This document shows, piece after piece, positions 10,595-20,000 of a stretch of 34,633 nt of DNA. The stretch is from Escherichia coli (lineage in GTDB: Bacteria > Pseudomonadota > Gammaproteobacteria > Enterobacterales > Enterobacteriaceae): assembly GCF_003334815.1 (NCBI RefSeq), contig NZ_QOWO01000038.1. One strand, given 5' to 3'. The notes under the pieces were generated by a model. It ran no database searches and was not told the DNA's origin. It saw only the letters and a list, made by a program, of their open reading frames with translations. The position numbers and the translations under genes are program-made. How positions within the stretch are numbered: the stretch's first letter is position 1; each line of letters begins with the position of its first letter.

Positions 10595-11026
10595 TTACGA
10601 TTTCAACTGGTAATCCAGCGTAATTTCCGCTTTCAGTACCTGAGAGACCGGGCATCCTGCTTTTGCTTTCTGGATTATGCCGTCAAAGGTAGAGGCATCA
10701 ATACCCGGCACCGCAACTTCACTCTTCAGTGCGATTTTCGTAATCGCAAAACCGGCATCCACTTTATCCAGCGACACATCGGCGGTGGTATCAATCGATG
10801 TTGGCGTGAATCCCGCTTCCCCCAGCATTAATGAAAGCGCCATTGAGAAACATGCGGCATGCGCTGCGCCAATCAGTTCTTCAGGGTTGGTTCCTTTTTC
10901 GCCTTCAAAACGCGTGTTAAATCCATACGGCTGTTGGTTCAGCACGCCACTCTCGGTGGATACTGTTCCCTTCCCGCGTTTGATATCGCCTTCCCAGTGT
11001 GCCTGACCTTTCTTATGGATTGTCAT
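10595..11026 (-). CDS. osmC: Osmotically inducible peroxiredoxin (OsmC/Ohr family)
   Basis: 143-aa ORF on the minus strand; recognised as E. coli OsmC. Confidence 0.95.
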   Translation of the reverse strand: MTIHKKGQAHWEGDIKRGKGTVSTESGVLNQQPYGFNTRFEGEKGTNPEELIGAAHAACFSMALSLMLGEAGFTPTSIDTTADVSLDKVDAGFAITKIALKSEVAVPGIDASTFDGIIQKAKAGCPVSQVLKAEITLDYQLKS

Positions 11027-11089
11027 TGTTGCTCTCCTGTGGGCTTAAAAAGGAAATTATAGACTACGTGAGAAACAGCACGAGGATAA

Positions 11090-11103
11090 GCAGGATATTC
11101 CGA
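11090..11103. promoter_or_regulatory. RcsB-box-like sequence in the osmC-bdm divergent regulatory region
   Basis: GCAGGATATTCCGA is about 10/14 identical to the RcsB box consensus TAAGAATATTCCTA. osmC and bdm are known RcsB-activated genes. Exact site assignment is unverified. Confidence 0.3.
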
Positions 11104-11370
11104 ATAAAATCCGGCGAAAATATTACTTCTGCACTTAAATTAAATTCCCACAATAGATTACCGGGAATATATAACCCAAAAGATATTGTATCAATATTAA
11201 TCGGATCATACCAATCACAATCCCTATGAATATCATGGTGTTAAAATATAAAAATCATCAACCAGGACTAATCTTAACAACGAAGCGGCAAATATTTGCC
11301 ATGCTGAATGTGCTTTATAAATCTGCGATCCGTAGCAGACACCATAAATACACAGACACGGAGAATCACT

Positions 11371-11586
11371 ATGTTTACTTATTATCAGGCAGAAAATTCA
11401 ACAGCAGAACCCGCTCTGGTTAATGCCATTGAGCAAGGCCTTCGGGCACAGCATGGTGTTGTCACTGAAGATGACATTCTCATGGAGCTGACCAAATGGG
11501 TTGAAGCTTCTGATAACGACATCCTCAGTGATATCTACCAGCAAACGATCAATTATGTGGTCAGTGGCCAGCACCCTACGCTTTAA
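11371..11586 (+). CDS. bdm: Biofilm-dependent modulation protein
   Basis: 71-aa ORF (MFTYYQAENSTAEPALV...), the in-frame 3' part of ORF-track entry 11308-11586; recognised as Bdm. Confidence 0.85.
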   Translation: MFTYYQAENSTAEPALVNAIEQGLRAQHGVVTEDDILMELTKWVEASDNDILSDIYQQTINYVVSGQHPTL

Positions 11587-11687
11587 GGTGCTATGCTTGA
11601 TCGGCAACCTAATTTAGGGGTTTAGCACGTGTTTCTTCGCTACGGCGATGTTGTCCTTAAAACTAGCTACAGGATTGAGGAGTTAAA

Positions 11688-14967: not shown

Positions 14968-15252
14968 ATGAAAATGGCCAATCATCCCCGCCCGGGGGAC
15001 ATTATTCAGGAATCACTGGACGAACTTAATGTCAGCCTGCGCGAGTTTGCCAGAGCAATGGAAATTGCTCCCTCAACGGCAAGCCGATTGCTGACAGGAA
15101 AAGCAGCTTTGACGCCAGAAATGGCGATTAAACTTTCCGTGGTGATCGGCAGTTCGCCGCAAATGTGGCTGAATCTGCAAAACGCCTGGAGTCTGGCAGA
15201 GGCAGAAAAAACAGTGGATGTGTCGCGATTACGCCGTCTGGTTACGCAATAA
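14968..15252 (+). CDS. yddM: HigA-family antitoxin-like HTH (Xre-type) DNA-binding protein
   Basis: ORF-track frame 14890-15252; start placed at ATG 14968 ([17 protein letters not shown]...), 94 aa. Small HTH protein typical of HigA/VapI antitoxins; recognised as YddM. Confidence 0.8.
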
Positions 15253-15254
15253 AA

Positions 15255-15280
15255 AAATGGCACTTTATAAAGCGCCATTT
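15255..15280. terminator. Near-perfect palindrome AAATGGCACTTTA|TAAAGCGCCATTT; candidate bidirectional intrinsic terminator after yddM
   Basis: Begins 3 nt after the yddM stop; A-run before and T-run after the stem allow function on either strand. Confidence 0.55.
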
Positions 15281-15410: not shown

Positions 15411-15431
15411 GCCTACGTTGTCTACAATATG

Positions 15432-15459
15432 AAAATGGCGCCTTTTACAGCGCCATTTT
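15432..15459 (-). terminator. Rho-independent terminator after fdnI (bidirectional-type hairpin)
   Basis: 10-bp stem AAAATGGCGC / GCGCCATTTT with 8-nt loop, 22 nt past the fdnI stop; the A/T runs are part of the stem arms. Confidence 0.6.
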
Positions 15460-17023: not shown

Positions 17024-20000
17024 TTACGCCTTCTCGATGTTGACTAAGAACGCTTTATATTCCGGCGTTTGCGAGTTTGCATCACCGACATTCGGCGTCA
17101 GAGTGTTAGCGATATAACCTTTACGCGCGACACCCTCAAAGCCCCAGTGGATTGGAATACCCACCGTTTCAACCTGCTGACCATTTACATTCAGCGGTTT
17201 CAGACGACGCGTTACCACAGCCACCGCGCGGATAAAGCCACGCTTGCTGGAGACAGTGACACGATCGCCATTATTAATGCCTTTCGCCGCCGCCAGCGTT
17301 TCGCTGATTTCCACAAACTGTTCCGGCTGAGCAATTGCGTTGAGCAATGCGTGCTTGGTCCAGGTGTGGAAGTGCTCGGTCAGACGATAGGTCGTACCCA
17401 CATACGGGAACTGCTCTTTTTTACCCATCCGCAGCGCGTCTTGTTCATACAGACGAACAACCGGGTTAGACACCACGTTCGGATGCAGCGGGTTAGTGCC
17501 CAGCGGCGTTTCAATCGGCTCGTAGTGTTCCGGGAACGGACCTTCCGCCATTTTGTTGATGGCAAACAGGCGTCCCATCCCTTCCGGCTGCATGATAAAC
17601 GGCCCGGTTGGCGTACCCGGTGCGGCATTGCCGAAGTCAGGAATATCGTTACCCGTCCACTTGCTGCCGTTCCACTGGATCAGCATCCGTTTCGGATCCC
17701 ACGGTTTACCGTTGATATCCGCCGAAGCACGGTTGTACAGCACGCGACGGTTGAGCGGCCACGCCCAGGCCCATCCCAGCGTATTCCCCAGACCGGACGG
17801 GTCGGAGTTATCGCGGTTAGCCATCTGGTTGCCCTGCTCTGTCCAGCTACCGGTGTAGATCCAGCAAGAAGATGCGGTTGTACCGTCATCACGCAGATGC
17901 GCAAAGCTACTCAGCAACTGACCTTTCTTCGCAATAAGCACGCCATTAGCGTCATAGAGATCTTCCAGCGCGTAGCCGTTGTTCTCTTTAGCCACTTCGT
18001 CAGATTGCGGTTCGTGCGGCTGCTTGTAGTTCCAGCTCATCTTCATCAGCGGTTCTACGCCTTTACCACCTTCGGACTGGTACAGCTCGCGCAGATGATG
18101 GTAGATACCCGCCAGAATTTCACCGTCGTTACGCGCTTCGCCCGGCGCGTCCTGACCTTTCCAGTGCCACTGCAACCAGCGACCGGAGTTAGCGATAGAA
18201 CCATCTTCTTCAGCAAAGCAGGTCGAAGGCAGACGGAATACTTCAGTCTGAATAGACGCCGGATCGACATCGTTCGACTCACCGTGGTTCTGCCAGAAGG
18301 TAGAGGTTTCAGTCACCAGCGGATCGATAACCACCATGTACTTCAGCTTGCTCAGGCAGCTCACCACTTTGTTTTTGTCCGGGAAGGACGCAACCGGGTT
18401 AAAGCCCTGGCAGAAATAACCGGTGACTTTGCCTTCATCCATCATGTTGAAATACTTGATGACGTCGTAGGTCTGGTCCCACTTCGGCAGCCAGTCATAG
18501 CCCCAGTTGTTCTCTTTCTGCGCGGCATCGCCATAGAAAGATTTCATCAGGCTAACGAAGAACTTCGGATAGTTGCTCCAGTAGTTCACCTGATCAGCCA
18601 GCGTCGCTTTCGGCGTGTTCGCTTCCAGATACGACTGCAAATCAACCTGTTTTTCTGACGGCAGCGTCAGATAACCTGGCAGGCTGGTAGAGAGCAGGCC
18701 TAAGTCAGTCAAGCCCTGAATGTTGGAGTGACCACGCAATGCGTTCACGCCGCCACCGGCCATACCCATGTTACCGAGCAGCAACTGGATCATCGCCATA
18801 GTACGGATGTTCTGCGCACCCACAGTGTGCTGCGTCCAGCCCAGCGCGTACAGGAAGGTGGTTGTGCGATCCGGTGCGCTGGTGGAGGCCAGCACTTCAC
18901 ACACTTTCAGGAAGTCGGCTTTTGGCGTACCGCAGATGTTTTCAACGACGTCCGGCGTGTAGCGGGAAACGTGCTCTTTCAGCAGGTTCCACACACAGCG
19001 CGGATGAGTCAGTGTTTCATCGCGTTTCGCATAGCCGTTTTCATCGAACTGATAGTTCCAGGACGATTTATCGTATTGACGTTTTTCAGCGTCGTAGCCG
19101 CTGAACAGACCGTCTTCGAAAGCAAAATCATCACGCACCAGCAGGCTGGCGTTGGTGTAATGCTTAACGTATTCGGCGTTGATTTTGTTGTTTTCGATCA
19201 GGTAGCGCAAAACGCCAGACAGGAACGTAATGTCCGTACCGGAACGAATAGGCGCGTAAATATCCGCCACAGAAGCGGTACGCGTAAAACGGGGATCGAC
19301 AACGATCAAGGTTGCGTCGTTGTTGTTTTTCGCTTCCATCGCCCAGCGGAAACCGACGGGATGCGCTTCAGCAGCGTTACCGCCCATCACCATCACGACG
19401 TTAGCGTTTTTGATATCCACCCAGTGGTTGGTCATCGCACCGCGACCAAATGTTGGAGCAAGACTTGCTACCGTTGGTCCGTGTCAGACGCGCGCCTGGT
19501 TGTCTACCGCCAGCATCCCGAGGGAGCGGGCAAATTTCTGGGTCAGCATCCCGGTTTCGTTGCTGGCACCGGAGGCACACAGCATACCGGTAGAAAGCCA
19601 ACGGTTTACCGTTACGCCCTGCTCGTTCTTTTCAATAAAGTTAGCGTCACGGTCAGCTTTCATCAGCTTCGCAATACGGGAGAATGCTTCTTCCCAGCTA
19701 ATGCGCTGCCATTTGTCAGAACCTGGCGCACGATATTCCGGGTAGCGCAGACGGTTTTCACTGTTGACGTAATCCAGCAAACCGGCCCCTTTCGGGCACA
19801 GCGCACCACGGCTTACCGGATGATCCGGGTCACCTTCAATGTGATAAATCGCTTCTCTGGCGTTTTTTGCGCCATCACCCAGGCTATACATCAATAGCCC
19901 GCAACCTACGGAACAGTATGTGCAGGTGTTACGGATCTCTTTAGCGCGTAATAATTTGTAGTTTCGCGCCTGAGCCAGTGCTTGCTTCGGGGCAAAGCCC

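Follow-up and report, generated by a model that had tools for sequence, protein, structure and literature searches.

The 14-bp motif at positions 11090–11103 is very probably the operator through which phosphorylated RcsB acts on the distal osmC promoter, osmCp1; it would be dedicated to osmC, and the divergent gene bdm would be activated via a second box at 11263–11276. The motif is the already known RcsB activator site of osmCp1, real but ordinary, and it has little significance beyond annotation of a long-studied Rcs- and NhaR-activated stress promoter. What the comparative analysis adds is that few RcsB boxes in Enterobacteriaceae are as well conserved as the bdm box, which tracks bdm even without osmC as a neighbour. 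The osmC box, unlike the bdm box, has decayed in Salmonella and Citrobacter.

The osmC–bdm intergenic region

Around the finding, the window (the whole stretch of E. coli DNA that was analysed, 34,633 nucleotides in length) is K-12-like: positions 11000–11400 (401 bp) match the reverse complement of MG1655 (NC_000913.3) with 100% identity, and in this part of the window the MG1655 position equals 1567651 minus the window position. The flanking genes are annotated in MG1655 as osmC (b1482) and bdm (b1481). The gap between them, 11027–11370, measures exactly 344 bp, and its G+C content (36.0%, against 50.4% for the window) is among the lowest 5% of 344-bp windows. Coordinates, G+C content and the MG1655 gene names all agree with the earlier note, made from the letters of the sequence, which had described an AT-rich 344-bp gap between the divergent osmC and bdm. 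The motif that the note had singled out as resembling an RcsB box, GCAGGATATTCCGA as read on the + strand, is indeed there, as a single occurrence (Table 1). An Rfam search found no RNA family inside the gap.

Table 1. Features of the osmC–bdm region, in window coordinates.
Feature	Position	Strand	Basis
osmC CDS (peroxiredoxin OsmC, 143 aa)	10595..11026	-	ORF; MG1655 annotation b1482
Proximal osmC start, taken as osmCp2	11046	-	Mendoza-Vargas 2009: 20 nt 5′ of ATG, flagged known
Distal osmC start, taken as osmCp1	11054	-	Kim et al. 2012: 28 nt 5′ of ATG
osmCp2 −10 CTATAAT, sigma-S type, C at −13	11056..11062	-	Invariant CTATA(A/C)T in 19/19 aligned upstream sequences
Candidate osmCp1 −10 hexamer TAGTCT	11061..11066	-	From spacing: −12..−7 of 11054
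Candidate osmCp1 weak −35 TTATCC	11084..11089	-	From spacing: −35..−30, 17-bp spacer
osmCp1 RcsB box, GCAGGATATTCCGA on +, TCGGAATATCCTGC in osmC sense	11090..11103		−49..−36, centre −42.5 of start 11054; abuts −35
bdm RcsB box CAGGACTAATCTTA	11263..11276		1 mismatch to TNRGAN4TCYNA
Candidate extended −10 of bdm, TGcCATGCT	11297..11305	+	Predicted start near 11312
Alternative candidate bdm −10 TATAAA	11316..11321	+	T11316, A11317 100% conserved; start near 11328, box centre then −58.5
bdm CDS (71 aa)	11371..11586	+	ORF; MG1655 annotation

Location of the flagged motif relative to the osmC promoters

The supplement of Mendoza-Vargas 2009 places an osmC start at −20 from the ATG, flagged known, with a −10 given as 'gtagTCTATAATttcc' / TCTATAAT. 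A start 28 nt 5′ of the ATG, supported by 3 reads, appears in Table S1 of Kim et al. 2012 (PLoS Genet), together with a 51-nt upstream string TTCGGAATATCCTGCTTATCCTCGTGCTGTTTCTCACGTAGTCTATAATTT, from TTCGGAATATCC to TATAATTT. The proximal start lies 8 bp downstream of the distal one. We take the start at 11054 to be that of the distal promoter of the literature, osmCp1, and the start at 11046 to be that of osmCp2, the proximal sigma-S promoter, presumably the osmCp2 of Gordia & Gutierrez 1996. Relative to osmCp1, the motif occupies −49 to −36, just upstream of and abutting the −35 element, as is the rule for an activator site. The earlier note had made the proposal depend on a location within −35-proximal distance of at least one of the two starts; the motif lies within that distance of the osmCp1 start, and for that promoter only.

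Against the structure-based RcsB homodimer consensus TN(G/A)GAN4TC(T/C)NA, a 14-bp pseudo-palindrome (PMC7913699), the motif has two mismatches (positions 1 and 5) among ten specified positions. Its promoter-distal half-site, TCCGA (TCGGA on the other strand), matches the consensus perfectly, and the promoter-proximal half, GCAGG, is degenerate. According to a review that describes activation of both rprA and osmC by RcsB~P, the usual place of an RcsB homodimer site is upstream of the −35 (PMC5651002). The rprA promoter, the paradigm of activation by an RcsB~P homodimer, served as a control: a perfect box, TGAGACGAATCTGA, is located at −49 to −36 of the annotated RNA 5′ end; after it come a poor −35, a spacer of 17 bp and TACTAT, in a spacing identical to that of osmCp1. 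The two sites differ in quality, as the rprA box is a perfect consensus match whereas the osmC box has its two mismatches, one degenerate half-site and an overlap with NhaR. In Salmonella, the ytfK box is located at −50 to −36 (PMC7913699 Table 2). Compared with the published E. coli osmCp1 RcsB box (Davalos-Garcia et al. 2001; Sturny et al. 2003), the flagged motif occupies an identical locus and, to the extent that this could be established, has an identical sequence; it is positioned directly 5′ of the osmCp1 −35 in DNA 100% identical to that of K-12, with no detectable difference.

Farther from the osmC ATG (about 140–190 bp 5′ of it), a consensus scan also picked up two sigma-70-like promoters facing osmC on the minus strand, TTGATA-17-TATATT (10/12) at 11194..11166 and TTGGTA-18-TACAAT at 11214..11185. 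The first, considered as a real promoter, is not conserved in E. whittamii and is likely cryptic, arising in AT-rich DNA. For Salmonella, SalCom records a distal start in the osmC direction.

A second RcsB box upstream of bdm

The gap contains another RcsB box, absent from the earlier note and nearer the consensus than the flagged motif, 173 bp from it centre to centre. A scan of representative bacterial genomes for Bdm yielded 40 Enterobacteriaceae loci; in 18 of them, osmC precedes bdm in divergent orientation. In 39 of the 40, a match with at most one mismatch is found at a fixed spacing from the bdm ATG (−108 to −88), and in eight cases it is perfect (TAAGATGAATCTGA and variants). For 22 of these 39 loci (Enterobacter, Lelliottia, Huaxiibacter and others), the 1.5 kb of sequence fetched upstream of bdm contains no osmC.

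Within the box, conservation tracks the consensus. Among 35 non-Escherichia loci, A11264, G11266, T11272, C11273 and A11276 are 100% conserved and A11267 and T11274 97% conserved; C11263 and G11265 are each kept in 77%, the alternatives being T and A (CAGGA or TAAGA), and variation is seen at the spacer positions and at position 13. Identity to E. coli averages 0.80 in the box and 0.31 over 11141–11255.

Downstream of the box, conservation in the same 35 loci is 97% for the TG of the candidate extended −10, for A11301 and for T11305, and 100% for G11312. A start near 11312 would place the bdm box at −49 to −36, as at osmCp1 and rprA. On architecture alone, we consider TGcCATGCT with a start near 11312 about twice as likely as TATAAA with a start near 11328. 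A bdm start is absent from Kim 2012 and Mendoza-Vargas 2009, both of which list osmC, and from SMRT-Cappable-seq data, and our sigma-70 consensus scan returned no + strand promoter in the gap. We take the box at 11263–11276 to be the bdm RcsB box described by Francez-Charlot et al. 2005. That box and the osmC box belong to the same intergenic region and the same regulator and probably have the same geometry, whereas the bdm box, 173 bp away, has a single mismatch, a much wider conservation and a stronger induction of its gene.

Between the bdm box and the bdm −10, a perfect 14-bp palindrome, GGCAAATATTTGCC, was noted at 11287–11300, which was also called as a minus-strand terminator-like hairpin. 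We considered it as a separate operator; its right half alone (AATATTTGCCAT) is conserved across genera, and it is probably bdm core promoter sequence.

Conservation of the osmC box

The sigma-S −10 CTATA(A/C)T is invariant 5′ of osmC in the window and in the 18 loci with divergent osmC (19 sequences), and it provides the register in which the distal box can be followed. The box is located 40–41 nt upstream of CTATAMT in 13 of these 19 upstream sequences (the window and 12 of the 18 loci), thus in register across five genera: Escherichia, Leclercia, Silvania, Pseudenterobacter and Intestinirhabdus. It has two mismatches in the window and in four of five Escherichia loci, three mismatches in the same register in the remaining Escherichia locus (L004), and two in Intestinirhabdus. 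The box has one mismatch in each of the seven Pseudenterobacter, Leclercia and Silvania loci, e.g. TGAGAATGTTCCGT. In Salmonella and Citrobacter, the box is decayed or displaced at that position; in S. Typhimurium, a consensus-grade motif is located ~243 bp from osmC instead (PMC7913699).

The length of the gap also varies. It is ~520 bp in two Salmonella loci, with an extra mid-gap RcsB-like motif that is adjoined by S. Typhimurium starts on both strands, and ~800 bp in the seven Leclercia, Silvania and Pseudenterobacter loci, a length that could accommodate an inserted gene.

In some E. coli strains, e.g. NZ_CP019213.3 (2428111–2430088), a copy of IS1 (IS1A or IS1B) is inserted exactly within the osmCp1 RcsB box. 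The target duplication in NZ_CP019213.3, GGATATTCCG, corresponds to window positions 11093–11102; after the insertion, the osmC-side copy of the box reads GCAGGATATTCCGg and the remaining gap is shifted ~0.77 kb away. The IS1 junction is covered at least 80% in 28 of 5426 complete E. coli genomes (~0.5%).

Literature and expression data

Published work describes osmC as RcsB-activated and lists bdm among Rcs-regulated genes, in agreement with the earlier note, which had assigned both genes to the Rcs regulon. Perturbation of lipoprotein transport or of the envelope induces both genes, and bdm much more strongly than osmC: a LolCDE inhibitor increases bdm expression 88–139-fold and osmC expression 9–17-fold, and colicin M produces log2 changes of 4.2–4.5 for bdm and 0.4–1.2 for osmC. 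The stronger induction of bdm fits separate sites of different quality. We found no literature data on genome-wide RcsB binding in E. coli, and a full-text literature search with the box sequences returned unrelated papers only. We assume that the boxes found here are, base by base, the published osmCp1 and bdm boxes, an assumption with which the titles and second-hand citations of the 2001, 2003 and 2005 papers agree. The independent sequence evidence for the boxes is strong enough to stand alone, apart from the primary papers.

Alternative interpretations

The AT-rich DNA between osmC and bdm is repressed by H-NS. The two boxes may cooperate, by looping or by joint displacement of a silencing nucleoprotein filament, and so couple the induction of osmC to that of bdm; alternatively, the IS1 insertions may mark the osmC box as an insertion target, with osmC control being rewired in the lineages that carry them. 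We regard either proposal as unlikely.

A second interpretation is that the site is primarily or only that of NhaR, a LysR-type regulator, the effect of RcsB on osmC being indirect or exerted elsewhere in the gap. The osmC box matches the RcsB consensus weakly, and the title of Sturny 2003 (J Bacteriol) states that NhaR and RcsB act independently on osmCp1 at overlapping sites. In the passage of PMC3013089 that cites Sturny 2003, His-RcsB D56E is reported to give no gel shift at osmCp1 but to protect it from DNase I, and this protection argues against a site used by NhaR only. So do the orthologous boxes of Leclercia and Silvania, which keep the register and come close to a perfect RcsB box, and the geometry that osmCp1 shares with rprA. 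The 2003 study reportedly includes mutations that separate the RcsB response from the NhaR response at osmCp1. Taken together, we consider an NhaR-only site very unlikely and retain the reading of the motif as an RcsB operator: mapped-start geometry, conservation across genera and the reported footprint agree with its identification as an RcsB box in the earlier note.

The earlier note had also suggested that the motif could serve either promoter. A single site shared in this way would have some appeal, given that the divergent genes are just 344 bp apart and that both respond to Rcs-activating stresses, and PMC7913699 assigns a single strict-consensus motif to both osmC and yddX, between which it lies in S. 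Typhimurium (we identify yddX as the bdm homologue). However, the osmC box has its centre 215–232 bp 5′ of the two candidate bdm starts, and bdm has a better box of its own at a fixed distance from its ATG, also in the 22 loci with no osmC in the fetched upstream sequence. The bdm response is, moreover, 5–10 times stronger than that of osmC, and RcsCDB regulation of bdm has a separate 2005 paper, the title of which fits an independent analysis of that gene. The gap therefore does not hold a lone site close enough to both starts to activate from there, and activation of both divergent promoters from 11090–11103 appears most improbable. Because the osmC box is far from the bdm starts and bdm has its own conserved box, we interpret the region as containing two dedicated sites: the box at 11090–11103 serves osmC only and bdm has its own. 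The question of a shared or a dedicated site is said to have been settled experimentally in the primary papers of 2001–2005. Of the earlier reading, then, the control region, the RcsB box and the Rcs membership of both genes stand, and the sharing by both promoters of a box at least 215 bp from the candidate bdm starts is not supported.

It remains to weigh chance resemblance, i.e. an AT-rich near-palindrome without a regulatory role. By sequence alone, the resemblance of the motif to the consensus is no better than chance. The 34.6-kb window holds 237 matches to TNRGAN4TCYNA with at most two mismatches, about one per 146 bp, and shuffled sequences give more (mean 338). Taking TaAGaatatTCctA as the RcsAB-box consensus, the osmC motif matches it at 10 of 14 positions, and a match of at least 10/14 arises in 46% of shuffled gaps; the gap itself has two such matches only, the osmC motif and 11263–11276 (11/14, minus strand). 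Another gap match with one mismatch (11201–11214, mid-gap), considered as an RcsB box, is unconserved even within Escherichia and is attributed to chance. What raises the flagged motif above chance is its position relative to the mapped start and its conservation, along with the literature: it is exactly at −49 to −36, as in rprA, its register is kept in distant genera where the box is nearer the consensus, and a DNase I footprint is reported at osmCp1 in the source cited above. A fortuitous match is accordingly hard to credit.

Proposed mechanism and relation to known RcsB sites

We propose that phosphorylated RcsB, the response regulator of the Rcs envelope-stress phosphorelay, would activate the distal promoter osmCp1 through the box at 11090–11103. 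Since the box abuts a poor −35, an RcsB dimer bound there would be placed to help RNA polymerase; centred at −42.5, RcsB~P may offset the weak −35 by contacting the polymerase, in a class II-type activation. The weak −35 elements to be compensated would be TTATCC at osmCp1 and ACAACG at bdm. NhaR is reported to use an overlapping osmCp1 site independently. Activation of bdm would take place via 11263–11276, probably in the same −49 to −36 geometry and with a start near 11312.

Activation of osmC is not known to depend on RcsA, unlike that through RcsAB boxes, which need RcsA. These boxes, the RcsA-RcsB heterodimer sites at cps/wca and rcsA (Wehland & Bernhard 2000), have a related consensus, the one that the osmC motif matches at 10 of 14 positions.

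Other features of the window

Downstream of bdm, a start for sra is reported at 11604, just past the bdm stop codon and 84 nt 5′ of the sra ATG (Kim 2012), which gives sra its own promoter besides any read-through from bdm. The window is a close relative of MG1655 and not MG1655 itself, as 15 substitutions separate them. Between fdnI and yddM, it has 178 extra bases compared with MG1655, flanked by a 34-nt imperfect direct repeat (15247–15280 and 15425–15458) that contains a hairpin; a 301-bp query across the insertion matches each E. coli genome at a median of 31 places and thus includes a dispersed small repeat. The sole Rfam match of the window is the expected SECIS element of fdnG (SECIS_3, 84 bits; 19431–19489, minus strand), for selenocysteine insertion in formate dehydrogenase-N. 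The lowest G+C content of the window, down to 28%, is found at about 21100–22960, a stretch that corresponds in MG1655 to yddJ, yddK and yddL (leucine-rich-repeat protein and pseudogene) and is suggestive of horizontally acquired DNA.
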